Shown: positions 24,001-57,354 of the stretch, in pieces | Position numbering within the stretch: the first letter of the stretch is position 1 | Layout of the letters: every line of letters begins with the position of its first letter | Assembly: GCA_948466335.1 (NCBI GenBank) | Contig: CAOKAE010000001.1 | Span: forward strand, 162,664-226,663 | DNA from: an uncultured Coriobacteriia bacterium | GTDB taxonomy: Bacteria; Actinomycetota; Coriobacteriia; Coriobacteriales; QAMH01 | Reading direction: 5' to 3' | Length of the DNA: 64,000 bases | The notes under the pieces: generated by a model | What the model was told of the DNA's origin: nothing | Database searches by the model: none | Seen by the model: the letters and a program-made list of their open reading frames with translations, nothing else | Translations under genes and position numbers: made by a program

Positions 24001-27000
24001 CCGGCGGCGATGACCTGCCGCAGACCGTGACCGTCAGGTACGGCGAGCAGGTCTCGCTGGCCAACCGCTTCACCCGCGCCGGCAACCACTGGATCGGCTG
24101 GACCGTCGAGGGCACGAGCCTCTTCACCCAGACGAGCTCCCAGGGCTACATCTCCAATCTCGCCACCCTCGAGGGCGCGGTCGTTCACTTCTACGCCCTG
24201 TGGGAGGCGGAGCGCGTCAACGTCGTCTTCGCCAGCGAGAACGGCACGCGCGGCACGGTCGATGGCGAGGACAGCCAGGCCGTGTGGTACGGCAAGTACC
24301 CCGCGTACGACAAGGTCATCACGGCTCCCGGCCGCGGCTGGTACCTCGTGGGCTGGGACGTCACCTACGTCACCGGTGACGGTTCGGTCAACACCCAGAC
24401 CGGTCTCGACGTCAACGCGCCGGCCACCTTCCAAATCCTCGGTCCCACCACCTTCCTCGCGCGCTGGAAGGAAGCCATCATCGTCAACTACCTGCCGGGC
24501 GACCACGCCGCCGACGGCGCCTTCCCCGATCCGGCTGTCGAGAACGAGACGATCTTCACCCACGTGGCCCCGCTGGGTAAGTTCCCCGCCTACGCCAACA
24601 GCATCGGCGCGCTGCCCGAGGGTGCTGTGGATGCCGACGGCGCGAGCTGGTACTTCGCCGGTTGGGAGATCCATTGGAAGCTGCGTGGCCAGGAGGGCTA
24701 CGTGGGCGATGCCGTGAGCATCTTCCAGGTCGATCTCTCCCAGGTTGCCGACCTCACCGTCGTGTTCCCCGGCAAGGCCGAGGATGACGAGCGCGTCTAC
24801 GACATCGACGTCATTGCCCTGTGGGCACCGGCTGACTACTACGTCATCTTCGACGCCAATGAGCCCGAGGGTGCCGATGCCCATACGGGCATCATGCCTC
24901 CCAAGCAGGGCTTCCTCTTCGACTCGAAGATCGCGCTCACCAACAACGCCTACGTGGTCAGCGGCTACACCTTTGCCGGTTGGAACACTAAGGCCGACGG
25001 TACGGGCACGTCCTATGCCGACGGCGCGGTGACCGGCATCCTCGAGAGCTTCTCCGACTGGTTCAGCACCGATCCCGAGAAGACCCTCAAGCTCTTTGCC
25101 CAGTGGACGGCAAAGACCTATGACGTCACCGTCGACCTGCGCGACGGCGCTCCCGGCACCCTTTCCGCCGGCACGAGCGGCGTCAAGGACTTCATCGCCC
25201 AGACCATCACCCTGGGCACGGCGAGCCACGTGGTCTACGTCGCCACCGAGACCTACGGCGTGGGCGTGGAATCGGCCATCAACCTGGTCGTCAACAAGGG
25301 CTATCGCCTGGCTGGCTGGGAGTGGAGCGCCGTCAAGGACGATGGCACCACGGTCACCGGCACCGTTACCGTGGACGACGGCGATGCCAACTTCGGCCTC
25401 GGCAAGCTCACGGTGCTCGGCACCGTCACCGCCTACGCGGTCTTCGAGCAGCTCTCCAGCGTGAGCTACCTGCCCGGCGACCACGGCAACTGGACCGGCA
25501 CGGCCACCACGGGCTCCACCGGCACCTTCTTCGACGACATTCGCATCGGCACGGCCGTCCCGACCTTCGGCACCGGCAATGGCGCCCTGCTCGTCGACGT
25601 TCCCGGTCTGGGCAAGCTGCCCGGCGCCGATGACGACTCCAACTGGCTGTTCAACGGCTGGCGCGGAAGCGACGGCAAGGTCTACGCCGATTACGTCATT
25701 CCCGCCGACGTGCTGGTCACCGCCGGCGGCATGACCTTCACGGCCCTGTGGGTGGCCAAGGACCAGACCCTCACGCTCAACGCCAACGGCGGCGCGTTCG
25801 CCAACGGCACCGCCGACACCATCACGGCCATCGCCAAGACCGACGTCACCCTGCCCGGTACCGCCGACGTCGTGCTCACCGGCTGGATTCTCGACGGCTG
25901 GTCGCTCGCGGCCGGCGGTGCGATCCTCTACGCGCCGGGCGAGACCATCAAGATGCCCACGGCTCCCACCACGCTGTTCGCGCATTGGAAGCAGGACTAC
26001 GTCGAGGTCTCCTACGAGGTCAAGGCCGACGGCTCCAACTACTACGGTCACATCACCGGCCCGGCAGGCGCCGGCAACGGCATCGTGTGGGTCGAGCAGA
26101 CGGTCTCCGACCCCCGCGGCACCTACGTGCCGGCCTACGCCGATCCCTCCTACAACAAGCTCGTCAACATCAAGGGCACCCAGTCGCTGTCCGCCGTCTC
26201 CGGCGACGCGCTCGACCCGTCCAACCTCTCCAACATGCTCTACGCCGGTCCGTTCACCCTCACCGCCAACGCCTTCGAGGGCTACCGCTTCGTGCGCTGG
26301 GTCGACGAGGATGGCAACGAGGTCTCGACCAACCCCTCGCTGCTCGTCACGCGCGATACCCTCACCGGCCGCTACAAGGCGCACACCTACTACGCGATCT
26401 TCGCCGAGCTCGAGAGCGTCACCATCGACTACACCGTCTCCGACAGCAACGTCGTGTGGGTCGACTTCGCGACCGAGGCCGTGCCCCCCGTCTCCGGTAC
26501 CCCGCGCACCAATGTCGCCCATGTCTCGGCCGGCTACGTGATCGAGGGTTGGTACGACGCCGCGGGCAACAAGGTCGGCAGCGGCGACAGCTTCACGCCG
26601 AGCCGCGGCGCCGACGGCATGTACGTCGCCGGTTCCTACGTCGTGCGCGTCATCCCCAAGACCGACACGCCGTTCGTCATCGAGTACTGGCTGCAGGACA
26701 CCACGGGCGCCTTCGTCAAGGATGCCGCCTCCACCGTCAAGGGCACCGGCTCCACCGACCTCGTGCTCACCATCAACGCCGACGGCACCATCTCCGGCGT
26801 GCCCGCCGATGGCGTCATCACGCTGCCCGCCGGCAACCTCATCCTGAGCTTCGCCGGCCACAGCTTCAGCGCCTCGGCTTCCACGCTCACCGGCGCCATC
26901 GCCGCCGACGGCAGCCTGGCGCTCAAGCTCTACTACACCAACAACACGCTCACCAACCCGACCATCATCTACAACGCCGGCACGGGCGGTTCGGTCACGC

Positions 27001-30000
27001 TTGGCAGCGAGCAGATCGACATCACCGTGACGCCCATCCCGTCGCCCATCGGCTCCACGCCCGTCGCGGCTCCCGGCTACCAGTTCAGCCACTGGCAGGT
27101 GGGCGACGACCCCGACATGCAGCTGAACATCGGCATCTCCTCGCTCTTCACCCCGCCCACGCCCGATGGCGGCTGGCTCGAGAAGACCGTGTACGCCTAC
27201 ACGGCCATCTTCATCGAGCTCCCGTCCATCACCATCAACTATGTCGCGGGCACCGGCGGTAGCGTCTCGCTCGGAAGCGAGAGCGTGAGGCCCGCCACGG
27301 GCACGCCCGCCGGCTCACTTGCCACGGCCAACCCCGGCTACGCGTTTGACCACTGGGAGGACGAGTTCGGCAACGTCGTCATGTACGACGCCACCAACAA
27401 GGCCCCGGCGCACCTCGTGCCGCCGCGCAACGCCGATGGCGTCTTCGTCGCGACCACCTACACGGCCATCTTCGTCGCCCTGCCCGTCGACTACACGGTG
27501 CAGCACTACAAGGTCGACCGCTATGGCAACGTGACGCTCATCAGGACCGACACCGACCAGGCCTACGCCGGCACCACCGTCACCGCCACGCCCATCGACA
27601 CCACCGCCGACGGGCTGTGGGCCGGCTACACCTACGCGCCCGGCCATTCCGGCGAGGTCTCCGTCGGCGTCGTCATGGTCAACCCGACGCTCGTCCTCAA
27701 GCTCTACTACACCGCCAACTCCGACACGCCCTACATCGTGTACCGCTACCAGCTCGATGGCAACGGCGTGTTCACGCAACTACCCAGCGAGAGCTACACC
27801 GGCTACACCGACGACACCGTCACCACGACGCCCAACGTGCCGGTCGGCTACCAGCTCGTCGCCGACGGCACCTACGCCTCCGGCATCCTGGCCGGCATCC
27901 CGACGCAGCTCGCCACCAAGCTCTCCGGCATGATCACCGGCGACGGCAAGCTCGTCCTCATCCACGTCTTCGAGGCCGTCAAGGTCCAGTACGTCGTCAA
28001 CTACTGGAAGATTCCGGGCTCGGCCCTCACCCAGGGCGACCCGCTGTCCTTCAAGGCACCGGCCGCGCCGAGCCAGACCTTCTACGACTACACGGGCGTG
28101 AGGGTCACGGCCGTGCCGCCCTCCATCCCCGGCTACACCTACGTGCTGCCCAGCGCCCATCGCGAGATGTATCCCAGCGTCGACACCGGCGTGGTGCTCG
28201 GCGACGGCACGCTCGTCCTCAACCTCTACTTCGAGGCCGACTACCACACGCTCACCCTCGTTCCCAACACGGGCGCCGGCGCGGGCACCTGGGCACCCGG
28301 TTACTCGGCCTTCGGCTCGACGCTGCTGCGCAGCGAGACCGAGACCACGCTGCCCACCACCACGCACCTGCGCAATCCCGGCTACACCTTCAAGGGTTGG
28401 GCCACCGAGAACGGCGGGGCCGTCGTCCACGCTCCCGGCGCGACCATCGCCATCGGCACGGCCGACATCACGCTCTACGCCGTGTGGGAGGCCAACACCG
28501 ATACGCCCTACACCATCGAGCGCTACCAGCTCAACGCCGACGGCACCATCACCAAGCTGCCCAACCTGACGGGTACGGGCACCACGGGCGAGTCGGTCAC
28601 CACCGTGCCGGTCGCTCCTGATGGCTACCAGGTTCCCACCACCGACTACATCACCGGCCTGTGGGACGGCAACCCGGTCTACCGCATCGACGAGATTCTC
28701 ACCGGCGTCATCACCGGCGACGGCAAGCTCAAGCTCGTGCACGTGTTCATCCCCGTGGCGGGCAACTACGTCGTGAAGATCTTCAAGGTCGATGGCATGG
28801 GCAACGCCATCCAGGTCGACGTGGACGGCAACGAGCTGGCCGCGGGCGACGTGCTGCTCGAGGGCTACAAGCATGCCGGTGCCGTCGGCTCCAACGTCAT
28901 CGTCGACTCCGCGAGTGCCACCGACACCCCCGGTTTCATCTACCACGCCTATGCTTCCAACCCGCCCCGTGGCTACAGCTACCTGGGCGATGCCGTGAGC
29001 TTCGTTGTCAACGGCAGGACCTACCTCACCATCGCCTCGGGCGTGATCGGCGACCAGACCCTCGAGCTCGTCATCTACTTCGAGCCCAACACCTACGAGC
29101 TCACCTACGTCACCGGCGATCCCACCGATCCGGATGCGGGCAAGTGGGTCGGCGCGGGCGACTCCTCGCCGGCCACGCAGTTCGGCTACGAGCTCAACGT
29201 GCCCGCCAACGGCACGCTGGCCGTGGTCACCCGCACGGGCTACGAGCTTCTGGGTTGGACCACCGTCGCCACCTACAGCGTGCGCGCCGATGGCACCATC
29301 GTCGCCGCCGGTACCGACGGCCTCGACGTCAAGGAAATCGTGAACGCCCGTGGCCAGGAGGCCATCGACGTCGCCACCTGGCTCGCCACCCTGGCGGCCG
29401 GCACCTACTACGCCGCGGGCGACACCTTCAAGATGCCGGCCAACGACATGAGCCTCTACGCGGTGTGGACGCCCACGCTCACCAACTACTACGTGAACCG
29501 CTACAGCGTGGCCAAGGATGGCTCGGTCACCCTCATCGACTCGGTGACGCGCACCGCTCCCACTCACACCACGGCTGCGGCCACCGATGCCGACAAGGAG
29601 ATCGTCGGACAGTTCTACCGCGTCCCGGGTGGCGCGGAGCCGTCCAGCATCGACTCGGTGCTCATCACGCCCGATGGCCTGGCCATGATCAAGCTGTACT
29701 TCGACGTCACCGCCGACACCGAGTACACGGTCGAGTTCCTGCGCTACACGGGCACCGGCCTCATCGAGCCCATCAACGCCTTCAAGGCCAACGCGACGAG
29801 CGCGGGTGGCGCGGCCGTCTACGACGAGACCGCCACGGCCAATCCGTCCGGCGCCGACACCAACATGCTGCTGTTCAGGGGCTACGCCAACACGCGTATC
29901 TACGTTGACCAGAACGGCACCGACACGCAGCTCATCTACTACAACAACTGCCTGGCCAAGATTGCGGCGGCTGCCATCACCGGCTACGCCTACGATGCCA

Positions 30001-33000
30001 CCTTCTCCACCGTCATCGACGGCAAGACCTACACCACGACGGCCACGGGCATCATCGGCGCCGGCGGCGCCCTCAAGCTTACGCTCGTCTTCGCCGCGCA
30101 ACAAAACGACCTCATCTACGACGTGAATGCCGCCGAGGATGCGGCCAAGGGCAACGCCGGCTGGGTCATCTCCGACCAGTCGCCCAAGCCCGCCCCGCGC
30201 ACCGGAACCACCGTCACCTTGCCCGACGCCACGACGCTGTATCGCTTCGGCTACGTCTTCGGCGGCTGGAACACCATGGCCGACGGTTCGGGCGACACCT
30301 ATGCGGCCGGCGCGAGCTTCGTCACCGGCAACACCGCCCAGACGCTCTATGCCGTGTGGACGCCGGGCAACGCCGACTACTTCATCGACTACTACAAGGT
30401 GCGCGGCGATGGTACCGTCGAGCTCTATGATTCCGTGATCCTGACGGGAATCACGGAGCGGACCGTGACCGTCACCGACGAGCAGAAGAACTACCGCATT
30501 CCCGAGGGTTACGCCTACGCCGCCGGCCATAGCGGCGAGGTCCTTTCGGGCGTCGTTACCGGCTGGTCGGGCAACAGGGCGGGCGACACCTCGGGCGCGC
30601 TGCACCTTAAGCTCTACTACGAGCCCACCAACAGCACCGAGTACCGCGTCGTGCGCTGGGCTGCCACCGGTGACGGCAAGCTCGTGGCCGTCGACGCCAA
30701 CGGCAACCTCAACTTCGACATCGCCCTCGAGCCCACGGCCGACGGCAGGCTCGTGCAGCTCGACGCCAAGGGCAATCCCGTTGCCTGGCTCAACGCCGAC
30801 GGCACGCAGTACGTCATCACGTCCACCGAGCATCGCCAGGTGTTTGATGCCGACGGCAATCCCGTCCGACAGCCCGTGATCGGCGAGGACGGCAATCCCG
30901 TCAAGGACGAGAGCGGAAACGTCGTCTACGAGGACGTCTACGAGGACGTTACCGTCTACAACGTCCAGTACCGTTATTGGTCGCTTCTGCCCAACGGCTC
31001 CGTTGTCCCGCTGGACGTGGCCGGCATCGTCGACGCGACCTTCGGCGCGAAATTCCTCGATGGCAATGGGTGCATCACCTCCACGCTCGACGGCGTCACC
31101 TACCACCTGCCTGCGTTTGCCACGCCGTACCTCATCGTGCACGCCAACGGCAAGGCCGACGCCATGGCCAATGCCGCCGCGACGACCGATGAGGTCGCGG
31201 CCAATCCCAACGTCAACGCTCACGACAACGTCGCTATCCAGGGCTTCGAGTTCCTGGCGCACGGTTCCACGACGCGTCTGGGCGATGCCGCCGAGACCAA
31301 GGTCACGACCGTGGCCCAGGGCTCCATCGCCGCCGACGGCAGCCTCGTGCTCACGCTCTACTACTACGCGGTGCGCTCCATGCTCACCTTCGACCCGGGC
31401 ACCGGCGCCGATGGCACCACCGTGGGTAGCTGGTTCAATGGCGAGGACCTTTCGGCCGAGTACATGCCCAACGAGGTCGTGACGCTGCCCACCGGCACCA
31501 ACCTGCGCCGTCCCGGCTACACGCTCGCCGGTTGGACCACCATCAAGAACTTCGTCGAGAACATGGGGACAGACCCCCGCTTCTCGATCGGCTCCGACGG
31601 CGACAGCCTCGTGGGCGTCGCCATGGGCCAGACGGCCATCGACCTGCAGGCCTGGCTCGCGACGCTCGGTGGCCAGTACTTCACCACCACCTTCACGATG
31701 CCGCGCGGTGCGACCACGCTGTATCCGGTGTGGCTGCCGCGCAACGACACCGTCTACACCGTCGAGTACTACAAGCATCGCGGCGATGACACCGTCGTGC
31801 TCGATGCCACCGTCCAGTACACGGGCATGACCGATACGCTCGCCAAGGCCGGCCTCGTCTCCACGGGCATGATTGACGGCGTCGCGGTCGACGACGTGAA
31901 CCGCTACGGCACGGCGTTCTACAAGCTCGTCGACAAGGACGGCAATCCCGTCCTCACGGTGACCGACAAGAACGGCAAGGTCTGGATGGCGCTTCTCAGC
32001 TTCAACATCGCCGCCGACGGCTCCACCGTCCTCAAGGTCATCTACGAGGCCCAGGAAATCGACTACACCGTCATCTGGTACAAGTTCACCGGTAACGAGG
32101 CCTTCGTCGAGGCCAAGACCGAGACGCGCCGCGGCCTGGTCGACGGCCCCGTGTCGGTCACCGACGCCGACCTCAAGGTCGCCTTCGACGGCTACAAGTA
32201 CTATCCCGGCTTCTCGCTCAGGGGCCAGCGCGAGCTTCTCTCCGCCGACATCGCCTCCGACGGGTCCACCATCCTCAAGATCTTCTACGAGGCCCAGGAC
32301 GTCACGCTCTTCCTCGACCTCGGCAGCTTCGGCGCCTGGTCGGGCCAGGAGCACGACGCCGACAAGTACAAGGCCGACCGTACGGTCAAGCTCTCCACGC
32401 TCGTCGAGCGTCCCGGTTACGACTTCATCGGCTGGGCTTCCATCGCCGACGGCAAGGATACGAAGGGCAGCGCTTCGATCACGCTGGCCGATGCCATGGT
32501 CAAGGCGCTCAACGACGCCATCGCCGCCGGCACGACGACGCTCGACGCCAACGGCAACATCGTGTTCGCCTATGGCGGGTCCGGCATCACCCTCATTCTC
32601 GCGAGTGGCGACGGCAACTACACGCTCGGCGCCGTCAACGTCACGCTCTATGCGGTGTGGAAGGCGCGCAATGACAGCGTCTACACCGTGCAGCACTACC
32701 GCGTCACCGGCGACGGCACGCTCAAGCCGGTCATCACCGATACCTACACGGGCATCACCGACGATCCCATCAACGTCAGCGCCGAGCACTACGACTACGT
32801 GGCGGGCACGGGCAACACGGCGGGTAACGTCGCCGCGTTCCAGGGCTACGCCTACGCCCCCGGCTTCAGCAAGGTGATTGGGGGACAGACCCTCGCCGAA
32901 ATCGCTGCGGGCACGATCCTCGCCGACGGCTCCCTCGTGCTCAAGCTCTACTACGAGGCCATCGACCAGTCCATCACGCTCAACACCGGCGCGGGCGCGT

Positions 33001-36000
33001 GGAACGGCAGTGAGAACTTCTACAACGCCACTTGGAACGCGGACAAGACGCAGGGTGTCGACAACACCGTCAAGACCGAGACGACGCTCACCGTTCCGAG
33101 CCGCGATTCCGCTTCGCGTCCGGGCTACACGCTCGTCGGATGGACGACGATTACCACCTACGACATCGTGGGCGGCAAGATCACCGCCGGCTCGCGTTAC
33201 AACATCGCCGACGCGACCGGCCAGACCGCACGCGACGTGGTCGCGTGGCTCGAGAGTCTCAACGCCGCGCTCGCCGCCAATCCCATCACGGGGGGGACAG
33301 ACCCCAACGCCGGACGCCAGTACTTCGCCTGCGGCACCTCCTTCGTGCTGCCGGCCGGTGGTGCGACGCTCATCGCCGTGTGGCAGGCCAACACCAACAC
33401 GACCTACACCGTCGAGCACCATAAGCTCGTGATGGATGCCGCCGGCAACGTCGTCGACACGATCGTGCTCACCGAGAGCCTCACCGGCATCACCGACGAG
33501 CAGGTCACGGGCATCGCCCAGACCTACGCCGGCTACACCTTCGTGGCCAACGGGCAGACGGCCTACCCCGGCCAGGCCTACGTGACCTTCGCCCAGGGCA
33601 CCATCGCCGGTAACGGCAGCCTCGTGCTCAAGCTCTACTACAAGGCCAACACCAATACGAAGTACACGGTCGAGCGCTGGATCGCGAGCGCCGATGGCAA
33701 GCAGCTCACCAAGGTCGACGAAAAGGTCCTGACGGGCACCACTGACACCTCCGTCACGCCCGGCTCCACCAATCCGCTGGGCTACACCCTCGACAACAGC
33801 TTCGTGCCCTCCACGATCTCGGGTACGGGCGCCTGGCCCAACGCGGCCATTCCGACCGCCATCATCGCCGGTGACGGCACCACGAGGATCATCCAGTTCT
33901 ACGTGCCCATCGACGTGCTCTACACCGTCGAGTTCTACCGCTACACCGGCGACGGCAAGGTCCTGCCCTTCAACGGCTTCGAGGCGAGCGCCGGCAAGAA
34001 CTACGCCGAGTTCATCGCCGGAGGGTCTGTCCCCGTCTTCATCGCCGGCACCTCCACCGGTGCGGCCACCAACGTGATCAAGGGCTGGGGCAAGACCTCC
34101 TCGACGCTGTCGGTCGACCGTCCCGCCGGCATCAGCGCCTCGGCCGGATTCACCTACGCGCACCTCAACCTCTCGGCTGCCGAGAACGCCAACTTCATCG
34201 GCTACACCTATGACGAGACCTTCGAGCAGGTCATCGGTGGCGTCACGTACAAGACGGTCGCCCAGGGCGTCATCCTCGCCGATGGCAGCCTGGTGCTGAA
34301 GCTGTTCTACGTGCCCGAGACGCTCTCGGTCACCTACAACACCGGCAGCGCCTCCACGACGGTCACCTTCCAGAAGAACCACACGTCGGAGTCGACCTTC
34401 AAGCTGCCCCTCGAGACCACCGAGGGTCCGGTCGTTGACCGCGCCGGATACACGCTGGTGGGCTGGACCGTCGCGAGCCACTACACCGGGTCGGGCACGG
34501 CCGAGAGCCCGTTTGCGCTGGCCGCCGCCAACGCCGCCGGCGCCAAGTCCATCAGCGCCGCCACCGGCTACGAGGCCCAGCGCCTCGCCGTCTGGCTCGC
34601 AACGCTGGGGACAGACCCCGACTTCGCAACGCATTGGGGACAGACCCTCACGCCCGACCTGGCCGCCCAGATGGGCAAGACCTACTACGCCCAGGGCTCG
34701 TCCTTCAAGATCGGCGTGCTGTCGATGAACCTGTACGCGGTCTGGACGCCCACGGGCACCACCGAGTACACGGCCGACATCTACAAGATCAAGGGCGACG
34801 GCACGATGGAGCTCGTCGGCACCAAGACCTACACCAACGGCGTTGCCGACGAGGACACCAACACGCTGGCCAAGCTGCCCGCCCAGAGCAGCGCGGACGT
34901 CTACGACAAGTCGCTCGACACCGAGTTTGGCCTGGCCGGCTATCGCTGGGTCGCCTCCACCGAGGATGGCCAGACCATCGACGCCGGCATGCCGGCCAAC
35001 ACCATCGCCCACGCCATCGTCAACGCTAACGGCACCACCAAGCTCATCTTCATCTTCAGGGCCATCGAGGTCGAGTTCCAGGTCAAGCGCTACCGCGTCG
35101 ACGGTGACGGCAACATCATCGAGGTCGATGTCGACGGCAATGACATCACCGACGATGCCACCGCCAAGCGCTTCACGCACAAGGGCCTCACCGACGCCAA
35201 CGTCAACGTGACCGCCACGGCCGATGACATGGCCGGCACCGACGCCAGTGGCTTCAAGGGCGGCTGGTACTACTTCATCGACAACCTCGACAATGTCGGC
35301 ATGGTCACCGCCCTCGACGGCAGCCTCATCGCGGCCTTCACCTATGACGCGACCTACGCCGGCAACCTGTCCACGGGCGTCATCGCCGGTGACGGCAGCC
35401 TCGTCCTCAAGCTCTTCTACCTGCCCGGCAACTTCACCTTCGCGCTGGATCCCGGCGCCGGCACGTGGGGGACGGACCTCTTCGACGCGGCCCAGACCCA
35501 GGAGGGCACGCTCGAGACCACGACGAGCATCTGGTATCGCCACTACGGCGCCAGCACCACCATCACGCTTCCCACGGCCAGCGAGCTCACGCGCGAGGGT
35601 TACGTGCTCGCGGGCTGGATGGTCGGCAACGACGTCGAGAACGCGATGCGCTTCGACGTGCTCGGCCCGGTCATCACCTACACTATGCCGGTGGGCGAGG
35701 TCATGCTCAGGCCGATCTGGACCGGCCTCGAGACGGCCTACATGGTCTACCACGTCAAGGTGCGCGGCGATGGCACGCTCGAGTACTACATCGGCTCCAA
35801 CAAGGTGGCCGCCGGTACCGGCGAGATCGTCCGCGGCACCACCGGCCTGACCGCACAGGTGACCGCCAACAGCTACGCCGGCTACGAGGCCATCGCCGAC
35901 CTCGTGAGCTACACCTACATCGGCGCCGACGGCGTCAGCCACACGGTCACGACGGCCGCCAACGTGCTCATCGAGTGGGGCGGTGCCTTCGACGGCGTCA

Positions 36001-39000
36001 ACAAGGGCAAGACCGCGGTCTACATCTACTACAAGCCGCTCGTCGTGAAGTACATGGTCGAGCACTGGGCCATCTCCGGCGACGGCACGCTCTACGCCAT
36101 CGATGCGGACGGTAACCTCCTGCGCGACGCCAACGGCAACCTCGTGGCGAGCCCCAACGCCGTGCGTGGCGAGCACGAGGGCTACTCCGACGCCCACATC
36201 TACGTCCTGGGGTCTGTCCCCGCTGATGCGGTCGCGGGCACCTACACGACCTACAGCCCCTGGAGCATCGCCGGTTACGAGTACGTGCTCGGCGCCATCG
36301 CGAGCATCAACGGCAAAGGCCCGTGGACCGACGGCATGCTGACGAGCGGCATCTACGTCGCACCCGACGGCACGCTCGTCCTCAAGCTCTACTACGTCGC
36401 CAAGAACCTGACGCTCACCTACGATCCGGGCGCCAACGGCTCCATCACCGCCGGTGGCAATCAGGGGACAGGCCCCGTCGATGTCACGCATCGCGCCGAC
36501 CACACCTTCAAGCTGCCCGCGGCCACCGACGAGAAGCTCACCGTGAGCCGTCCGGGCTACGTGCTCAAGGGTTGGACGACGCTCATGAGCTACGGCGTCG
36601 CCGCTGATGGCAGCATCGTCTCGGCCGATACCGCCGGCGCTATCGTCAAGCTCATCGCCGACGCCAAGGGCGCCGAGGCCGAGGCCGTCATCGCCTGGCT
36701 CGAGAAGCTGGGGACAGACCCCCAGGGCCGTCCGTACTACTACCTCAACGGCGCGACCTTCCTCATGCCCACCGCCAACGAGACCCTGTACGCGGTCTGG
36801 ACGCCGCGCTCCGACATCGTCTACACCGTCGAGCACTGGCTCATCACCGGCGATGGCACCTTCTCGCCGCTGGACAAGAACGGCAACGTCATTCGCGACG
36901 CCAACGGCGCGCTCGTCACCGGCACGCCCAACACGAGCGCCGATGCCTCCGACACCACCAACGCGGCCTACCGCGTCACCTACAACAACGGCAAGTCCGA
37001 CGTCGTCTTCGACCTCGACGCCATCGGCGGCTACGTCCGCACGGTCGCCGGCTACACCTACCTGCTCAACAACGCGAGCTTCACCATCGCGGGCGCGACG
37101 GGCACCACCTACGCCGTGAAGACGATCAGCGCCGACGGCAAGACGGTCTTCTACCTGTTCTACCGTGCCAACGAGAACACGATCCGCTTCGAGGTCGGCT
37201 CGCTCGGCACCATTGACGGCGGCACGCTCGACGCGACCGAGAACGTCAACTTCATCACGCAGAAGCACTACACCGACGACAGCTTCGACCTGGCAGACGT
37301 TCCCACCCCGACGCGTCCCGGCTACGACTTCCTCGGCTGGACCATCGCCGACAAGAAGGGGACAGACCCCATCAACGACGCGATGGGCTACACCGCCCAG
37401 CAGATCGTCACCTGGCTCGAGGCCCAGAACGCGGGCAAGGGGACGTACCTCAAGCTGTTCTTCAAGTCGGGCACGAACTTCACCTACCTCACGCCGACCG
37501 GCGACATCACCCTGCGCGCCGTGTGGACGCCGCAGCTCGTCGACTACACGATCAACCGCTGGAAGGTCACCGGTAACGGCGACAAGGTCGAGCTCGACTC
37601 CGTCACCTACAAGGGCTACGCCGATACCGAGGTCCGCTTCGACGCCGCCAAGACCGAGTACAAGGACGGCATCACCTACCTCAAGGTCGACGTGCCCACG
37701 GGCTATCGCTTCCTGGCCGCGGGCACGAGCGAGATCTACACCGGCACCAACAAGCTGACCCAGTCGTTCAGGACCGACGCCTACGGCAACGTCCTTCCCA
37801 ACGGCACGGCGAAGTTCACGCTCTGGTACCTGCCGAAGACCTTCAAGCTCGAGCTCGAGCTCGGCACCCTGGGCACCTGGAACGACACCACGACGGGCAC
37901 CAACACCGGCACGCTGAAGACCGTCGAGTATGACGCGGAGTCCGTCCACGAGATGCTCGGCTACCTCTCCGCGAGCCGTCCGGGCTACACGCTCGTTGGC
38001 TGGTCGTCCAGCGACTTCAGCGCGCTCAAGGGAGAGGCGTCGCAGGCCAAGTGGCTCGAGCTCGCCGCCTCGGCCGTCGGCGCGGACTGGGTGCGCGTCA
38101 CCACGGTCCTGAAGTCCGACGCCACGGGCACGTCGCTAACCGGCTACACCTACGCCTACATCGCCAACAGCTACGAAAACATCAAGTACATGTACACGAT
38201 GGGCCTCGCGGGCGTGAAGTTCTACGCCGTGTGGCGCGCCAACGACGACACGGTCTACTACGTCGACCACGTCCGCTGGGAGGGCAACAGCACCGCCAAG
38301 ACCACCATCACCGAAGAGTTCCGCGGCATGACCGACAAGAACTACACGGCCGCCCCGTTCAACACCATGCTCGCCGATCCGCGCTACAACACCAGCTTCA
38401 CCGGCTACGGCTACAACGGCACGGATCCCAAGCCCAGCACGGCCACGAAGGCGGTCACCGGCGACGGCACCATGCGCATCACGCTCAACTACTTCGCCCA
38501 GAAGCTCAACCTCACGCTCGAGTCCACCGGCGGCACCTGGTCGACGACCTGGAATCCCGAGCACCTGACCGAGTCGAGCTTCAACCTGCCGACCAACGCC
38601 GACATCAAGCGCCCGGGCTACACGCTCGTGGGCTGGTCGACCACCAATCCCGACGATGGCCTGACCGGCAACATCAAGGGCCTCGCCTCGCAGGTCAAGG
38701 CCGGCCAGCTCGCGGCGATCACCGGCAACGACACCGCCAACGGCGGCGCCAACTGGATCACGGTCGCCACGACCTCCGACGGCAAGACCTACGTCTTCGT
38801 CACGCCGGGCTACAAGATGCCAACGAGGGGACAGACCCTGTACGCCGTCTGGTACGCCAACAACGACACGAAGTACGCGGTCGAGCGTTGGGTCGTCTCC
38901 GGTGACGGCGTCCGCTACGCCCTCAAGGCCGACGGCACGCTCGAGCGCGATGCCAACGGCCTGCTCGTGACCAGCGACAAGGCCGACAGCGCCCATTCGC

Positions 39001-42000
39001 TGAGCTACGTGGGCACCACCGACGAGGAGGCGTGGGCCGACGCCATCGATGGCTCCATCGTCTACCGCACGAACGACACCCTGCTCACCATCACTGGCTA
39101 CGCCTACGCCGCCGATGGCGAGACGATCGTCGCCAAGGACGGCGTCGTGACGATCGGGGGACAGACCCTCAAGACCGACGCCCGCGCGACCATTACCGGC
39201 GACGGCAAGATGACCCTCGTGCTCTACTTCAAGCCGCTGCAGTTCACGCTCGACTTCTACATCGGCGCGACGAGCACGCCCAACCTGAGCGCCACGCCGG
39301 CACGGGCCACGCTCTATGCCGACCAGACCTACACGCTGCCCACCTCGACGGTCACGCGTAGCGGCTACACGCTCAAGGGCTGGACGAACAGCCAGTACGC
39401 GAGCACTGTCGATGCGGCCACGATCATCTCCGACCTCAAGGGCATCAAGTCCCAGAACGCCTACACGGCCGTGAGCGCCAGCACGGGCCGCGATGCTGTG
39501 ACCGGCAAGGTCTTCACCGCCGTGACAAGCGGGGGACAGACCCTCTACATCATGCCGACGGGCAACGTGACGCTCTACGCCACCTGGCGCGCCAACGACG
39601 ACACGCAGTACCTTGTCGAGCGCTGGGTCGTCTCCGGCGACGGCACCCGCTATGCGGTCACCTCCGATGGCAAGCTCGTCCGCGATGCCAACGGCAAGCT
39701 CGTGACCAGCTCGGCTGCCGATGCGAACCACGTCGTCAAGCACGTGGGCATCACCGATGAGGAGGCCTGGGCCGACGCGAACGTGGCCGGAACGAGCTAC
39801 CGCAACGACGATTCCGCGCTCACCTTCGCCGGCTACGCCTTCGCGGCCAACGGCGAGACGGTCATCGCCAAGGACGGCGCGACCGCCTTCACCACCATCG
39901 CCCGCAAGGTCATCACCGGCGACGGCAAGATGGTCCTCGTGCTGTACTACAAGCCCAAGCTCAACACCATCACCTTCAACTTCGGCAGCGGCACGAGCAC
40001 CGGCGCGCCCGCGACGATGCAGGTCTACACCGACCAGACCGTCGAGCTGTCCGCCGATGCCGAGCGCACGGGCTACGACCTGGTCGGCTGGTCCAACGTC
40101 CCGACCTACAGCGTGAAGGTCGACGGTGCCGCCACGGCCGCGACCGTCAACGTCGGCACCTCCAAGGGCCTGGCTTCCCAGGCCGCCGCTGATGCGGCCA
40201 AGGCCAACACCAAGCGCACCTCCGACAAGGGCGCCGCCTTCACCGCCGTGACGATCGGGGGACAGACCCTCTACATCATGCCGACCGACGCGAGCATCAC
40301 GCTCTATGCCACCTGGCGCGCCAAGTCCGACACCGTCTTCTACGTCGACCGCTACAAGGTCACCGGTGACGGCGTGGTCGTGCCCATCGACGCGAACGGC
40401 AAGGACCTCGCGGCCCTCGTCTCGCTGCGCTTCACCGGCGTCACCGACGAGACCGCCACCGCCGGCGCCAAGAGCGGCCCGAAGCCCTGGAACACCGCCG
40501 CCTACGGCGCCCTGGCCGGCTACTACACGATCGCCAACGGCACGAGTGACCGCGTCATGCTCAAGGACGGCAGCGGCTACGTCGTCATGACCACCATCAG
40601 CGCCGGCGTCATCGCCGGTGACGGCAGCCTGCACCTCGTCGTCTACTACTTCCCGCTGGCGGACCGCGTCCTCGACCTCGACGTCGGCGACGGCACCTGG
40701 GAGCCCGGCAAGGAATCCCAGTACAGCGGCAACAAGCACGCCACCGAGTCGAGCTTCACGCTGCCCACCAACGCCGACGTCAAGCGTCCGGGCTACACGC
40801 TCGTGGGCTGGGCCATCGACAAGAACGGCCTCATGGCCGCCGGAAAGGACACCGCCAAGGGCGCGGCGTCGCAGCAGTCCTACCTCACGCTCGCCGCCGG
40901 CAAGACCGGCTACATCGCCGATGGCGGCGCCGAGTGGATCGCCGTGATCTCCGGCTACGATGCGTCGACCTTCACCTACACCTTCATCGGTGCCGATGAC
41001 GTCATCTACGTCATGCCCACGAACGCCAAGGTCATGCTGCGTGCCGTGTGGCGCGCCAACGACAACACGCCGTACTACGTGTCGCGTTGGGGCATCAACG
41101 GCGACGGCGTCGCCTTCCCGTTCAAGCAGGACGGCACGGTCGACATGAACGGCGACCAGATCGTGATCCATGACGATCCCGCGTGGATCAAGGCCAACTA
41201 CGTCGTCCATTACGGCATCACCGACGAGATCGCCTGGGCCGATGCGAACGTCGACGGCGTCTCCTACCGCAACGCCGACAACATCGAGGTGAACGGCTAT
41301 AGGTACCTCCCGACCGACGATCCCGCGTTCGACTCGATCGGCGGCAACCTCAACACGATGGCCCGTGCGGTCATCAAGGCCGATGGCAGCATGGTGCTCA
41401 TGCTCTACTACAACGCCAAGGACAACATCACCTACTCCGTCTACCACGTGCGCGTCACCGGTGACGGTACGGTCAAGAACCTCGTCAAGCAGGAGTTCAT
41501 GAAGAAGAACAACTCCTACGTCACCGTCGACAACCTTGATTACAACGGCCTCGACGACAGCCGCTTCCTCGGCTACGAGTACGTCGACTCCATCGTCATC
41601 AACGGCGTCACCTACTACTCGCATATTGCCGGTAACGTCTACGACGGCCTCATCCTGTATCGCTACTACAAGGCCATCTACGACGAGGGCGACAAGGGCA
41701 TCCACCTCGAGCTCAATCCCGGAATGGGCATCTGGGTGAACACCGGCGAGTCCACGCCGTCGATGATCCCCGGCACCTCGAACAGCTCGCACGACACCTT
41801 CGCCGCCGAGACCACGATCACGCTTCCGGGCGCCGACCAGCTCTACCGTCCCGGCTACGAGTTCGTCGGATGGTCCGACATGCCCGACGGTGCGGATGCG
41901 AAGGGCAACTACTCCGTGATCACGTCCGACCACCTGATGAGCGTCGATCCCGAGACGGGCCAGTACACCGACGTGCTGCGCGCCCTCATCATGAGCCTGC

Positions 42001-44116: not shown

Positions 44117-44214
44117 GGGGACAGACCCTCCGCTTCATCCGCCGGCGAAAGAATGGGGACAGACCCTCCAATTGCAGCTTCCGTATCCGCCGGTGAAAGA
44201 ATGGGGACAGACCC
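44117..44214 (+). repeat. REP-like array, 3 forward copies, starting 21 nt after the giant-gene stop
   Basis: Cores at 44117-44128, 44155-44166 and 44203-44214. The 30-nt units 44137-44166 and 44185-44214 (atccgccgg[c/t]gaaagaatGGGGACAGACCC) differ at one base. Confidence 0.9.
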
Positions 44215-45073: not shown

Positions 45074-45130
45074 GGGTCTGTCCCCCTATTGCCACCTGCC
45101 AGCCGAAGCCTTGATCGGGGGTCTGTCCCC
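45074..45130 (-). repeat. REP-like pair, 2 reverse copies upstream of the RAYT-type gene
   Basis: GGGTCTGTCCCC at 45074-45085 and 45119-45130. Both are followed by the reverse complement of the second arm (ctattgcca / tcattagca). They are preceded by a 13-nt tandem partial duplication at 45051-45076. Confidence 0.9.
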
Positions 45131-45299: not shown

Positions 45300-46097
45300 G
45301 TGCCGCGCCAGCCACGCAGACAATCGTCAACCGGGTATTACCACATCACGAATCGCGGCGTTGGCAAAGCGCGCGTCTTTAGCGACGGCAACGACCACTC
45401 GTTTTTCATAGATTGCCTGCGACTTGCGCAGCGGGTCTGTCACTTCAGGGTTCTCGCATATTGCATAATGACCACGCATTTCCACATCGTCATCAAGTGT
45501 GAGGGCGCCGTTCCAACACCCCTTTTCCAGAGCATAGGAGCACGATTCTCGGCCTATTACCATAAGAGGCACAAATGCTCTGGGCAAATATTCCAGGGTC
45601 GTTTTCGCAGCGAGGCCATCGAGACGGACAGGCACCTTCTCTCTGCGATTCGCTATGTATGGCGCAATCCCGTCAAGGCCCACCTCTGTTCCTACCTGGC
45701 CGCCTATCCGTGGAGTAGCTACAATTGCCTGGGCAAATCGGGTGGCTTGATCGACGACGAGCTCCTTTGCAGCTTCATGAGTGCCGATGAGTGGCGGGCC
45801 TTTGCGTTGCAGGAGACGGACGGCCGTCATCTCGAGCCCTTCCCTCTGCGACTGTCGGACAGTTTCGCTCGGAAACTGGTCCGTGAGGAATGTCGACAGT
45901 TTGGCGATGTGCCGAGGGATGCTCTTGAGAAACCAGAATGCCCTCCTGCACTTGCTATGTGCTTGGATGCGGGGATGACCGTGGCGCAGATTGCCAGAAT
46001 CCTGAACATCGCCGCAACTGGTATGTATCGTGCATTGCGTAAATGGGGTCGGCAGGTTCCGAGGGCATGCACTCTCGAAGCGTCGAGTAGTCCGTAA
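45300..46097 (+). CDS. IS200/IS605-like HUH Y1 transposase of the REP-associated tyrosine transposase (RAYT) type, with a C-terminal HTH extension
   Basis: GTG start 6 nt after AAGGAGG (45287-45293). N-terminus PRQPRRQSSTGYYHITNRG..RVF...DHSFFIDCL. HUH motif in VLAYCIMTTHFHIVIK. GQIFQGRFRSEAIETDRHLL. Catalytic-Tyr motif AIRYVWRNPVKAHL...YPWSSY. C-terminal MTVAQIARILNIAATGMYRALRKWG looks like an HTH. Confidence 0.85.
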   Translation: MPRQPRRQSSTGYYHITNRGVGKARVFSDGNDHSFFIDCLRLAQRVCHFRVLAYCIMTTHFHIVIKCEGAVPTPLFQSIGARFSAYYHKRHKCSGQIFQGRFRSEAIETDRHLLSAIRYVWRNPVKAHLCSYLAAYPWSSYNCLGKSGGLIDDELLCSFMSADEWRAFALQETDGRHLEPFPLRLSDSFARKLVREECRQFGDVPRDALEKPECPPALAMCLDAGMTVAQIARILNIAATGMYRALRKWGRQVPRACTLEASSSP

Positions 46098-47528: not shown

Positions 47529-47614
47529 GGGGACAGACCCTCTTGTGCCGTACGTAATAATTCGGGGACAGACCCCCGACAATAGGAGGATACCGACAAT
47601 AAGGGGACAGACCC
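47529..47614 (+). repeat. REP-like array, 3 forward copies
   Basis: Cores at 47529-47540, 47564-47575 and 47603-47614. The third has the arm ccgacaataa. Confidence 0.9.
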
Positions 47615-47731
47615 CCGAATTCGACCCCCGAATCCCCGCCCTCAAGCCCTCTCGAGCTCATGGGATGGCCGTCTCCTCCGCATTGTCGCGCTGGGTATAA
47701 TTGCCTCGACAAAACCGTTTCGAGGAGACCG

Positions 47732-48561
47732 ATGTCCGCCCAAACTCCAGATGAGAAGTACGACGCCTTGGTCATTCGCCTTCGTTCCCTCAAAAACGTG
47801 GCGGTCGCCTTTTCGGGCGGCGTTGACTCCACGTTGTTACTGCACGCCGCGCACGAGGCGCTTGGCGATAGGACGGTTGCGATTACGGCGCGATCGCGCC
47901 TTTTCCGCAACGCGAACTCGACGAAGCCGTTGCGTTTTGCAATGACCGCGACATTCCGCACGTCATCGTCAACACGCACGAGCTCGAAGACGAGATGTTC
48001 CGGCAAAATCCGCCCAATCGTTGCTATATCTGTAAAACGGGGCTACTGCGCGCCGTTATCGACGTCGCGAACGGGCGCGGGGTCGACCATATCGTCGAAG
48101 GGTCTAACACTGACGACGAGAGCGACTATCGTCCAGGTGCGCAGGCAATACTCGAGCAGGGGGTGATGAGCCCGCTCAAGGACGCTGGTCTTTCAAAGCG
48201 CGAGATACGTGATTTGTCGCGAGAGAAGGGTCTTCCCACCTGGAGCAAACAGTCATTTGCGTGTCTTGCCTCGCGCTTTGCGTTCGGTGAGGTCATTAGC
48301 GAGGAGCGCCTTGGCATGATCGACGCAGCGGAGCAGATTCTTCTCGAAAGGGGAATTCGACAAGTTCGCGTGCGCTTTCATGGGGCAATCGCGCGTATCG
48401 AGGTGCAGCCGGATGATTTCGCGCATCTTGTCGATTCGGATGTTCGAGAGGATGTTATCCGAAACATCAGGGCGCTTGGATTCAAGTATGTGACGCTTGA
48501 CCTTGGAGGCTACCAGACAGGCAGCATGAACATGACAATTGGGGGACAGACCCTCAACTGA
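47732..48561 (+). pseudogene. LarE-like PP-loop ATP pyrophosphatase / sulfur transferase (COG1606 type) interrupted by a -1 frameshift
   Basis: The upstream frame (ATG 47732, RBS GAGGAG) gives VAVAFSGGVDSTLLLHAAHEALGDRTVAITARSRLF. The downstream frame, open from 47872, gives PFPQRELDEAVAFCNDRDIPHVIV...NPPNRCYICK...DYRPG...FACLASRF...VRVRFHGAIARIEV...YVTLDLGGYQTGSMN. Adding one C at about 47905-47906 (ttcc_gcaa) fuses both frames into a 276-aa protein. Confidence 0.8.
48542..48553 (+). repeat. REP-like copy forming the last codons of the larE-like gene
   Basis: catgacaattgGGGGACAGACCCtcaactga is translated MTIGGQTLN-stop. Both the arm and the core are present. Confidence 0.9.
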
Positions 48562-49207: not shown

Positions 49208-49328
49208 GGGGACAGACCCCCTCTTCGTGCTGGCCCCCCATCCCGCGCACCTCCAAGCGCCTGCTCGACTTGGGGCCGAGCAATCGCGCGTTGCGGTTCT
49301 CCCTGCGTAACAATATGGGGACAGACCC
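49208..49328 (+). repeat. REP-like copies, 2 forward
   Basis: Cores at 49208-49219 and 49317-49328. The first sits in a 9-bp perfect palindrome, aagaggggg-ACAGA-ccccctctt (49203-49225), with the arm gtgacaag. Confidence 0.9.
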
Positions 49329-50824: not shown

Positions 50825-50969
50825 GGGGACAGACCCTTCCATACCATCGCAGGCGAAAACCGGGGGACAGACCCCTAACTCCGACTCCGGGGTCCCATTC
50901 GTGACAGCTAGGGGACAGACCCCGCGAACCGATTCCATGAGCCGACCCCGCAAATCGGGGGACAGACCC
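50825..50969 (+). repeat. REP-like array, 4 forward copies
   Basis: Cores at 50825-50836, 50863-50874, 50911-50922 and 50958-50969. Spacings are 38, 48 and 47 nt. Confidence 0.9.
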
Positions 50970-51984: not shown

Positions 51985-52047
51985 GGGTCTGTCCCCGGAT
52001 TATCAACATCATCCCATGGCGAAGGTCGTGACGAAGGGTCTGTCCCC
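51985..52047 (-). repeat. REP-like pair, 2 reverse copies in the divergent intergenic region
   Basis: GGGTCTGTCCCC at 51985-51996 and 52036-52047. Confidence 0.9.
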
Positions 52048-53369: not shown

Positions 53370-53416
53370 GGGGACAGACCCCTGGCTGTCCGGACTGACA
53401 ATGAGGGGACAGACCC
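53370..53416 (+). repeat. REP-like doublet (forward) immediately after the MFS stop
   Basis: Cores at 53370-53381 (arm gtgacaatgc) and 53405-53416 (arm ctgacaatga). Confidence 0.9.
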
Positions 53417-55242: not shown

Positions 55243-55391
55243 GGGTCTGTCCCCTTATTTTTCCCTTCGCATTTCCCCCGGCTGACAATCAGGGGACAGA
55301 CCCTCACGCATCATGCTGACAGTCGGGGGACAGACCCCGTCGTGTCCCGTCGTGTCGACATGCCCGCGTTTGACAGCCGGGGGACAGACCC
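55243..55391. repeat. REP-like cluster: 1 reverse copy then 3 forward copies
   Basis: Reverse copy at 55243-55254, 2 nt after the luxR-type stop. Forward copies at 55292-55303 (arm ctgacaatca), 55326-55337 (ctgacagtcg) and 55380-55391 (ttgacagccg). Confidence 0.9.
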
Positions 55392-56974: not shown

Positions 56975-57354
56975 TCGCTTCGCGTACGGGGGATGCGTCG
57001 TCTTTCATGGCGGCGCATCCTCGCGCGCGTTCTTTTGCCCTTTGCGCGACGTGAAAGGGGACCTGAAAGTCGTCGTGTAAACCCCAAGTTCACAGGCGCT
57101 TTTCCCTGTGCCGTCAGACGCGAGGTACGAGGATATTTCGCGAGGGGTCCACGATTTCCGCACCTGTGTACGATTCTCAACTCGCGCACCTGAGCCCTAG
57201 TTTGTACGTGCCGCAATCCCTCGGCGGCACCGAAATGTCTCGAGTTCGTATTCCTCGAGTTGACATGAGCATCCGGCTCAATGGGACGTCTTCCTCGCAC
57301 AACGGCATGGCGCCGCGGAAGAGCGCCCCGGCTCTTTTGAAAGGAGAGGCGCGT

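Follow-up and report, generated by a model that had tools for sequence, protein, structure and literature searches.

Results

Genes and repeats at the locus

The locus studied here is a 64,000-nt stretch from an uncultured Coriobacteriia bacterium (contig CAOKAE010000001.1, positions 162,664 to 226,663), referred to below as the window. A giant open reading frame (ORF) of 14,685 aa (39..44096, +) is followed by a RAYT/TIRYT-like Y1 HUH transposase gene (45300..46097, +) and by a region with moeA, larE, tig and MFS transporter genes. A 12-mer, GGGGACAGACCC, recurs in the last 12 kb of the giant gene, where fifteen copies are translated in frame, and in the DNA downstream. The copies probably belong to a transposase-tied repeat family, units of which sometimes reach coding DNA and persist there if the encoded residues do no harm.

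Both strands of the window were scanned for exact copies of the 12-mer, and 100 dinucleotide-preserving shuffles served as the control. The scan resulted in 47 exact copies, the expected number being 0, and no copy was found in any of the 100 shuffles. The density is about 0.7 per kb over the 64 kb, with 39 copies in the sense and 8 in the antisense orientation (83% on one strand). Fifteen copies are located in the giant ORF and the remaining 32 between 44117 and 61680. In comparison with the 47 exact copies, the window contains one near-match with one mismatch and three with two mismatches; the motif is close to all-or-nothing.

The bases at positions -9 to -4 upstream of the core were determined to be T (61%), G (85%), A (61%), C (57%), A (87%) and A (63%), and the base directly 3' of the core is C or T. 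The repeat unit consists of a TGACAA-like arm of about 9-10 nt and the core GGGGACAGACCC(C/T), in total about 21-22 nt. A single 21-nt unit of arm and core is present in the related genome L001 and missing from the window at 44130, and the unit gained or lost is therefore of this size. The core forms only a 4-bp stem (-2.9 kcal/mol). Since shuffled sequences fold as well as typical units with their flanks (z = -0.2 to -0.3), the repeat is not a classical REP palindrome; neither a GTAG or CGTC tag nor the 20-40 nt imperfect palindrome of REPs was found in it. The core is free of stop codons in all six frames. No Rfam match was obtained at E <= 1 over 30-64 kb of the window, and a literature search with the 12-mer and its reverse complement returned unrelated primer or sequence strings only. 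A phage origin of the repeat was considered and rejected, the viral scan having given just two unrelated palindromic repeats. In the viral contigs L011 (4380-4460) and L012 (8730-8800), the 12-mer lies inside a longer palindrome, GGGTCTGTCCCGGGGACAGACCC, which is apparently unrelated to the element studied here.

Translated copies in the giant gene

The giant protein has DUF285/LRR_5 repeats in its first third, then Flg_new repeats, and then about 4,400 residues almost without a Pfam match. Its C-terminus carries an xPxTG-like motif, a hydrophobic stretch and an RRRR anchor. The tail contains a block of super-repeats with units of about 240 aa (30978..43349, +), each composed of a divergent Flg_new-like module and a YxVERWxVxGDG module. 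The super-repeats are 25-63% identical to each other in protein, and a hidden Markov model built from the tail paralog alignment matches strongly only in this block, which holds all 15 in-gene copies.

According to the original prediction, the giant gene carries fifteen perfect copies in two forward phases and one reverse phase without disruption of the frame. The exact scan agrees with this: the copies span 31565-43006, 13 of them are sense and 2 antisense, and the ORF is open through all 15. Seven sense copies are read in the phase xG GGG ACA GAC CCx, which encodes GTDP, and six in the phase xGG GGA CAG ACC CTx, which encodes GQTL. Both antisense copies are read as GGG TCT GTC CCC and encode GSVP. 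In the giant protein, 7 of 8 GTDP, 6 of 6 GQTL and 2 of 2 GSVP tetrapeptides use the exact motif codons, and the in-gene identity is therefore at the nucleotide and not at the protein level. The claim that many copies keep the upstream arm also holds, as 8 of the 15 scored at or above the 98.7th percentile with a weight matrix derived from the intergenic arms (Mann-Whitney p = 8e-7). The in-gene doublets are spaced like the intergenic arrays. Apart from the shared arm, the flank identity between in-gene copies and possible intergenic donor copies was mostly at chance level.

Fate of the copies in related genomes

A scan of a genome collection with the last 1,399 residues of the giant protein gave four loci. 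L001, an uncultured gut Coriobacteriia metagenome-assembled genome of the same species, is 98% identical to the window in nucleotides, and L003, L004 and L002 are about 81-82% identical. The giant-gene tails of L010, L009 and L007 were obtained from protein searches and contig look-ups; L009 and L007 also contain the transposase gene. The fate of the in-gene sites was followed in an eight-genome alignment, in which L009 is error-prone. Eleven of the 15 sites are exact in L003, compared with 16.9% of fully conserved background 12-mers in the same alignment (p = 2e-6). The corresponding numbers were 9 of 13 in L004, 6 of 11 in L010 and 9 of 15 in L009. Each in-gene site has either 0 or at least 4 differences from L003. 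A test of third-codon-position constraint, with the replaced sites included, was not significant (17% vs 25-27%), because the differences at the sites are all-or-none and do not reflect a uniformly lower rate.

Several copies are retained throughout. The GGQTL copy at 32881..32892 (+) is exact in all six genomes covering the site, and exact matches in six genomes were also determined for the GTDP copy in an AWLEKL loop (36710..36721, +) and for the RGQTL copy that overlaps a conserved TLYAxW strand (38827..38838, +). The GTDP copy at 31565..31576 (+), which has a good arm, is exact in L001 and L009, and L003, L004 and L010 have GGGCACCGATGC or GGGTACCGATGC at this site. Decay by single bases was detected as well. 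The antisense GSVP copy at 36210..36221 (-) is exact in five genomes and has one substitution in L010. The GTDP copy with the arm gacaagaa (37358..37369, +) has one substitution in L010 and two in L009. In the window itself, a decayed copy with one mismatch, GGGGACAGGCCC, is located at 36464..36475 (+), and the site is exact in L001, L003, L004, L009 and L010.

The original prediction expected presence and absence of copies to appear as clean indels in multiples of three nucleotides. Part of the changes is of this kind. The VTIGGQTL copy at 39157..39168 (+) has the arm gtgacgatcg, and the site is 18 nt shorter in L003 and L004; the extra bases of the window include the arm. L007 has a private 15-nt insertion encoding RGQTP near window position 42013, and 9-nt indels adjoin the sites 31565 and 36464. 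The doublet at 42962..43006 (+) consists of two GTDP copies (42962 and 42995) placed 33 nt apart in an inter-module linker. Its cores are kept in L003, L009, L002 and L007, and its spacers vary by indels in multiples of three. The MFS loop described below behaves similarly.

Three other sites, 33293, 34023 and 38209, depart from that expectation, as the motif replaces a sequence of the same length. The armless GTDP copy at 33293..33304 (+) is found only in the window and L001. Four relatives use the alternative codons GGC/GGA/GGG ACC/TCC GAY CCC/GTC, which encode the same or a similar peptide (G-T/S-D-P/V) with 3-5 base differences. The armless antisense GSVP copy at 34023..34034 (-) is also restricted to the window and L001, the relatives having AGCAGCGTCCCC. 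These two are gains of the window lineage. At 38209, the window has CGGGCGTGAAGT and four relatives have the motif. The gains need 3-7 simultaneous changes within 12 nt, and the flanks are about 82% identical; because of the several simultaneous changes, a templated event is favoured over stepwise mutation.

These data also bear on whether the codons are simply ancestral protein-coding sequence under protein selection, with a secondary likeness to the repeat. Some positions do match the module consensus, namely the GG turns and the T-L of TLYAxW, and the relatives encode GTDP at 33293 too. However, relatives lacking the motif do not have identical codons, as seen for GGC ACC GAY CCC at 33293, and the paralogous modules are only 25-63% identical, whereas one 12-mer is used in three frames with near-total codon identity including GGG, GGA and ACA. 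The identical 12-mer is moreover found in intergenic arrays and in unrelated phyla. An ancestral coding origin of the motif is hardly credible on this evidence.

Position of the copies in the protein

The motif positions coincide with stretches where the paralogous modules have gaps or differing lengths. A case in point is the variable AWLxxL-[loop]-YY segment: the loop has 3 residues and no motif at aa 9778, and 24 residues with two copies at aa 11516. The latter is the doublet at 34607..34647 (+), formed by a GTDP copy at 34607 and a GQTL copy at 34636, 29 nt apart. Other copies are on GG turns and on the T-L of the TLYAxW strand.

Residues 12885-13215 were modelled with AlphaFold using an alignment of window paralogs only (mean pLDDT 75.6, pTM 0.69), and the model covers 3 of the 15 sites. 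The GG of VVTIGGQTL (39157, aa 13041; block pLDDT 89) is placed by the model in a beta-hairpin turn, and the same is predicted for the GG of TSGGQTL (39532, aa 13166; block pLDDT 72-76). A position in surface loops or linkers is thus indicated for two of the three modelled sites, the third one being in a low-confidence part of the model. This agrees with the earlier view of the copies as loop or strand residues. Only weak matches were found with Foldseek against PDB (best E = 1.7e-3), and these were MucBP/MubR-type and InlB B-repeat surface proteins. Because of the weakness of the matches, the label 'MucBP-like' given to the modules in the original prediction is plausible and not established.

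Restriction to the last 12 kb

The prediction that the copies are confined to the last 12 kb was borne out. The six possible peptide signatures are missing from the first 31.5 kb, where the nearest nucleotide match has 2 mismatches (17172), and GTDP, GQTL and GSVP do not occur in the first 10,500 residues. With an even spread over 44 kb, the chance of all 15 copies falling within 12.5 kb would be about 6e-9 by our own calculation. The restriction is common to the orthologs: L009 and L010 cover window positions 23.1-31.5 kb and have 0 copies there. The copy-bearing block is the block of strong matches to the tail super-repeat model (30978-43349), and it is also the part of the gene nearest to the transposase gene. 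Weaker modules of the tail-type family at 27.5-31 kb have no copies.

Four possible causes of the copy-free head were rejected. The GC content is uniform from 18 to 44 kb. A recent expansion of the head is not seen, as paralogous stretches nowhere in the gene exceeded about 76% identity in self-BLASTN. Near-cognate sites are not lacking in the head, 12-mers with 4 mismatches occurring at 3.5-5.2 per kb in the head blocks and at 5.7 per kb in the tail. The amino-acid composition is equal in head and tail. The suggestion of a different history for the tail block consequently gains no support from GC content, near-cognate 12-mer frequency or recent duplication. All 18 in-gene copies of the window (giant gene, MFS and larE) are within about 14 kb of the transposase gene, and the more distant coding DNA, comprising the 31-kb head and about 9 kb downstream, has 0 copies. 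As the copies match the tail block and all lie near the transposase gene, the restriction may result either from tolerance of the tail modules or from preferential local action of the enzyme.

The coincidence of motif block and super-repeat block is also what is expected if short-tract gene conversion or duplication among the tail modules was the main way in which the copies multiplied within the gene, the restriction then reflecting module homology. Several copies are found at positions that are homologous between modules, namely at IGGxT[LFY], at TLYAxW and in the AWLxxL loop. The VTSGGQTL copy at 39532..39543 (+; arm gtgacaagcg) and the VTIGGQTL copy at 40258..40269 (+; arm gtgacgatcg) are at paralogous positions with flanks matching at 22 of 24 bases, and those of 39157 and 40258 match at 16 of 24, against a nucleotide identity of only about 66-76% between the modules. 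Short-tract exchange among paralogous modules contributed at 39157, 39532 and 40258. As the main route it is quite unlikely: the copies are in three frames or orientations and at non-homologous module positions, the similarity of most flank pairs is at chance level (mean 8.8 of 24), no copy occurs in the pre-tail members of the module family at 27.5-31 kb, and the copies in MFS and larE are left unaccounted for.

The copies might instead be kept for a cis role in the 44-kb gene or its mRNA, as binding sites or as points of in-frame recombination. The cross-species retention and the sense bias of 13:2 are consistent with such a role, and the same-frame copies 39532 and 40258 are exactly one super-repeat apart (726 nt = 242 codons). 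Differences in module copy number bounded by the motif were, however, not detected among six genomes, nor were motif copies seen as break points of module-scale rearrangements among them. An Rfam match is lacking, and the MFS and larE copies behave alike without such a context. A cis role is accordingly judged highly unlikely.

Intergenic arrays

The copies outside the giant gene are grouped into arrays of 2-4 at intervals of 27-54 nt, and most point in the same direction. The arrays occupy nearly every intergenic spacer downstream of the giant gene, often just 3' of a terminator. The first one (44117..44214, +) lies just 3' of the giant gene and has 3 copies, corresponding to 5 in L001 and 2 in L003. 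Two inverted copies (45074 and 45119; 45074..45130, -) are located directly 5' of the transposase gene, and their opposite-orientation partner is an array of 3 copies 3' of the moeA terminator (47529..47614, +). Together these copies bracket the transposase gene and moeA, and the layout is identical in four other genomes. Two copies precede tig (49208..49328, +) and four follow its terminator (50825..50969, +). The spacer between slyD and the MFS gene has two copies (51985..52047, -), and an array of 2 copies at 53370..53416 (+) corresponds to 4 in L001. One antisense and three sense copies are in the spacer between the LuxR-type gene and a second MFS gene (55243..55391, both strands). The last two arrays have 4 (60400..60521, +) and 3 copies (61596..61680, +). 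Between the window and L001, 8 of the 10 internal indels of at least 3 nt are in or adjoining arrays, one of them being the single 21-nt unit of arm and core.

Many arrays end in a tandem duplication of 11-15 nt behind their last copy; it begins within the core, e.g. GACCCCCATTTGA twice. Such duplications were seen at 45050-45085, 47603-47640, 48542-48580, 50958-50995, 53405-53440 and 55326-55360. The duplication at 45061 is present in the window and missing from L001 and is therefore recent. These duplications might mark the site where the element is cut or copied.

Other host genes

The giant gene is not the sole host, since copies were also found in the MFS transporter gene (two) and in larE (one). 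The MFS transporter (52080..53363) has two antisense in-frame copies encoding GLSP and GSVP in its central loop (52706..52760, -). Among the 120 orthologs compared, those with at least 86% identity have motifs in a loop segment of 46-57 aa. In the orthologs with 84-85% identity and in most of the more distant ones, the loop has 28-36 aa (up to about 55) and no motif. Within the clade, the loop spacers vary by indels in multiples of three and the cores are exact. The loop of the L007 ortholog P0017 (L007 10646-10753) has 76 aa with four copies in two phases, encoding GSVP three times and GLSP once. In L007, the C-terminal tail of the giant protein runs through an intergenic copy.

The single larE copy (48542..48553, +) supplies the final codons of the gene (..MTIGGQTLN and stop), which the LarE family model no longer covers. 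In the window, larE consists of two overlapping ORFs (47660..48166 and 47995..48561), with model positions 1-69 and 84-259 in different frames, which is a frameshift or an assembly error. The homologue in the sister genome L005 is one gene of 273 aa. A small ORF at 57166..57561, located 5' of a molybdopterin oxidoreductase gene, has an (A/P)PGAP-type repeat (..APGAPGAPGAPVAPGAPAAPGAP..) and is conserved in the sister species (L005, about 15000-15200).

The transposase gene

The product of the gene at 45300..46097, 265 aa in length, has the motifs THFH, FQ and YVWRNP. It matches Pfam Y1_Tnp with 21.5 bits (cut-off 23; profile positions 4-118 of 121) and the NCBIfam model REP_Tyr_transpos ('REP-associated tyrosine transposase') with 71 bits (cut-off 80; positions 3-146 of 146). 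The sole sequence match in PDB is E. coli TnpA-REP, 4ER8, with HFH/YVWRNPVK aligned to HMH/YIYINPVK. By the two family matches and the alignment with 4ER8, the catalytic core of a Y1 HUH enzyme, with the HUH motif and the catalytic tyrosine, is present. TIRYT proteins have been equated with TnpA-Y1 subclass 2.1, whose members show NH[YF]H, FQ and Y[IV]xxNP and have an HTH-like C-terminal region (Quentin et al. 2018, PMC6006769). The signature applied here comprised these motifs, a proximal SS, a length of about 238 aa or more and a C-terminal helix-turn-helix (HTH). The window protein has THFH (T in place of N), IFQGRF, YVWRNP and WSSY, and for the C-terminal HTH only a weak HTH_7 match below the cut-off was detected (E = 5e-4). 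The subclass probably corresponds to RAYT Group 1 (Bertels et al. 2017, PMC5581495), an equation that is our own.

TIRYT genes have flanking inverted repeats that share GGGGWSAS, and some of these form dispersed families (Di Nocera et al. 2013, PMC3733652). GGGGACAG fits GGGGWSAS, and in the window clade antisense copies are found at about -180 to -300 of the transposase gene and sense copies after moeA at about +2230. The gene is syntenic in five genomes (window, L001, L003, L007 and L009). Its protein is 70%, 60% and 60% identical to those of L003 (17534..18310), L007 (4282..5076) and L009 (21862..22635), respectively. The neighbouring tig and moeA genes are 83-91% identical; the transposase diverges much faster, and its presumed 12-mer target is unchanged.

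The association extends to unrelated taxa. Metagenomes were scanned for two exact 12-mers 15-45 nt apart, which gave at least 120 contigs; among the matches listed, the GC content ranged over 0.36-0.77 and the array periods were 17, 21, 24 and 33-60 nt. In tblastn with the window transposase, homologues of 20-32% identity were detected in at least 14 unrelated short contigs (8 strong with E < 1e-7, 6 weak). Inverted 12-mer copies are found on both sides of the homologous ORF in at least 7 of these (L097, L059, L079, L041, L030, L015 and L110). The high-GC contigs L053 (1-120), L100 (58-320), L066, L055, L127, L038 and L040 contain tandem arrays of the 17-nt GGGGACAGACCCCGGGT with 5-8 or more copies. 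In L100, the GGGGACAGACCCCGGGT array is followed by an inverted array of its reverse complement, a packing of the 12-mer very unlike that of the window.

A relative with few copies

The sister genomes L005 and L006 are syntenic with the window over a 211-aa gene, moeA, larE, DUF2510, tig, slyD, the MFS gene and the LuxR-type gene. At this syntenic locus, both the giant gene and the transposase gene are missing, and the spacers are short. L005 has 1 exact copy in 21 kb, orthologous to that at 49317 of the window (L005 position 7584), and the gene-carrying genomes have 20-40 copies per 13-26 kb. By tig and moeA, L005 (88-91% identical to the window and L003) is closer to them than the copy-rich L007 (83-87%). 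Barring an unexpected position of the root, L005 would seem to have lost the arrays together with the MFS insertion. Such a loss would be in line with REPIN-RAYT systems, in which the repeats would be expected to disappear once the gene is lost.

For the copy upstream of tig, both the arm gcgtaacaa(a/t)at and the downstream flank are conserved along with the core (window 49303-49345, L005 7570-7612), and this copy may have a local role, e.g. in the tig promoter region. The moeA-larE spacer of L005 contains a near-palindrome, GGGGTCTGACCC, with 2 mismatches to the core (6185-6201), at the place of a 3-copy array in the window.

Discussion

We consider it probable that the in-gene copies of the Coriobacteriia window are units of a repeat family linked to one domesticated Y1 HUH transposase of the RAYT/TIRYT type, the single gene of which (45300..46097) is syntenic. 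The units would accumulate in spacers as short, mostly direct arrays with shifting copy number. A unit or a bare core would enter coding DNA either as an insertion in multiples of three nucleotides or as a short templated patch that overwrites a site already matching in part. The core would survive in genes by being stop-free and by encoding small, turn-friendly peptides of four to eight residues (GTDP, GGQTL, GSVP and GLSP). Permissive places would be beta-hairpin turns and variable linkers in the tail of the giant surface protein, and elsewhere the MFS central loop and the C-terminal end of a protein. The in-gene copies would then be kept nucleotide-exact, like the intergenic ones, until deletion or replacement. 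We infer that the transposase itself makes and maintains the copies via single-stranded DNA, and peptide tolerance presumably decides which in-gene copies survive. The original idea of an absorbed mobile repeat is in agreement with the repeat family, the arms and the hairpin turns; it does not cover the several gains that are same-length patches.

A number of points weigh against this explanation. The core lacks a REP-like palindrome, and the Pfam (21.5 vs 23) and NCBIfam (71 vs 80) matches of the transposase are both under the curated cut-offs. As the metagenome contigs were chosen for the exact 12-mer, they cannot serve as an unbiased measure of how widely it is conserved. The absence of the transposase gene from L005 was seen at the syntenic locus, the part of that genome covered here, and the link of the repeat to the enzyme would follow from association and from this control species. 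The in-gene copies are not fully protected, since point decay occurs. The patch gains at 33293, 34023 and 38209 took place at sites already encoding a similar peptide, no known RAYT activity fits them, and an oligomer under selection or molecular drive would give the same pattern. The explanation also does not account for the sharp restriction to the tail block.

Such an oligomer deserves separate treatment. DNA uptake sequences (DUS, Neisseria), uptake signal sequences (USS, Pasteurellaceae) and HIP1 are short exact oligomers with about 1 copy per kb, which occupy tolerated coding frames, are retained across species and are gained by substitution. HIP1 is palindromic. DUS and USS occur as dispersed single or inverted-pair copies in both orientations, have no dedicated transposase and are linked to competence. 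If the 12-mer were a host-selected or drive-favoured oligomer of this type (DUS, Chi or HIP1-like), built up by point substitutions, the transposase would be incidental. The density of about 0.7 per kb, the all-or-nothing exactness, the length-neutral gains where GTDP or SSVP was already encoded, the cross-species retention well over background and the strand bias of 39:8 could all be accommodated. In contrast to the known oligomers, the window motif is non-palindromic and transposase-associated, has a conserved arm that accompanies the core also inside genes, forms direct arrays of 2-5 copies with fast copy-number change and an 83% bias to one strand, and is nearly absent from a close relative without the transposase gene at the syntenic locus. 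Its inverted copies around distant transposase homologues in unrelated taxa and its gains of 3-7 simultaneous changes within 12 nt likewise disagree with stepwise build-up. We regard a host-selected oligomer as unlikely.

A bolder form of the transposase-based explanation is that the TIRYT-type Y1 enzyme and the exact GGGGACAGACCC are a pan-bacterial pair, in which the enzyme writes and rewrites its own recognition site by templated patches on single-stranded DNA. If true, patch-writing would account for the exactness, the length-neutral gains in genes and the collapse of the family on gene loss. We treat this as speculative and rather unlikely.

In comparison with the published TIRYT systems, the similarities are considerable: the window Y1 HUH protein is longer than classical RAYTs and may have an HTH-like C-terminal part, its gene is syntenic among related species, and the inverted flanks with GGGGWSAS belong to a repeat that is also dispersed in dimers and clusters. 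The published families are, however, 'moderately abundant', and the flanking 16-mers of Group 1 number about 12 per replicon, whereas the window density is about 0.7 per kb. The window repeat is conserved over 12-13 nt and a loose arm only, its arrays are mostly direct and not inverted, and the exact window 12-mer occurs in contigs of GC 0.36-0.77. A survey found subclass 2.1 to be without a REP-like partner (PMC6006769). No report of in-frame copies was found in the literature for the TIRYT class.

With REP, BIME and REPIN sequences and their RAYTs in E. coli and Pseudomonas, the window shares a domesticated Y1 transposase flanked by cognate repeats and the clustering of repeats in spacers after terminators. 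The repeat families of these systems are described as persisting with their RAYT genes over long periods. Unlike these systems, the window repeat has a 4-bp hairpin, no 20-40 nt palindrome or tag, and direct repeats in place of inverted doublets. The premise of the original prediction that REP-type repeats are normally excluded from coding DNA needs qualification, as in-frame cases have been documented (PMC3733652, with the Rickettsia RPEs cited there). Such inserts are possibly neutral, being placed in flexible linkers or loops of modular proteins (PMC3733652). The RPEs and the intragenic GTAG/CGTC REPs (PMC3733652) resemble the window copies in being in frame, in leaving the gene open, in occurring as dimers or clusters and in presence or absence among orthologs. 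The host ORFs of the window are likewise open, and inserts in multiples of three are missing from some orthologs (MFS, at 85% identity or less). The window inserts differ in size (4-8 codons vs 20-80), in number (15 in one gene), in the use of three frames or orientations and in that some are same-length patches.

In-frame repeat insertions (Rickettsia RPEs, GTAG/CGTC REPs; PMC3733652) and TIRYT genes with GGGGWSAS repeats are thus already known, the translation of selfish repeats within genes being a rare phenomenon. New are the high density of a TIRYT-linked family in gut Coriobacteriia, a 12-13 nt core shared exactly with unrelated taxa, and fifteen translated copies in one gene with cross-species retention and same-length patch gains. 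For annotation, caution is advised, as the peptides GTDP, GGQTL, GSVP and GLSP can stem from the repeat when they occur in proteins of this clade. Among domesticated HUH transposases, the TIRYT/subclass 2.1 Y1 proteins form one of the largest groups and one of those least understood. The window offers a cognate sequence, a dense and evolving population of copies, a natural comparison in L005 and in-gene gains and losses that can be read in codons. The sequence recognized by such enzymes, the way in which their repeats arise and the amount of selfish repeat sequence that a protein can take up are thereby opened to test.

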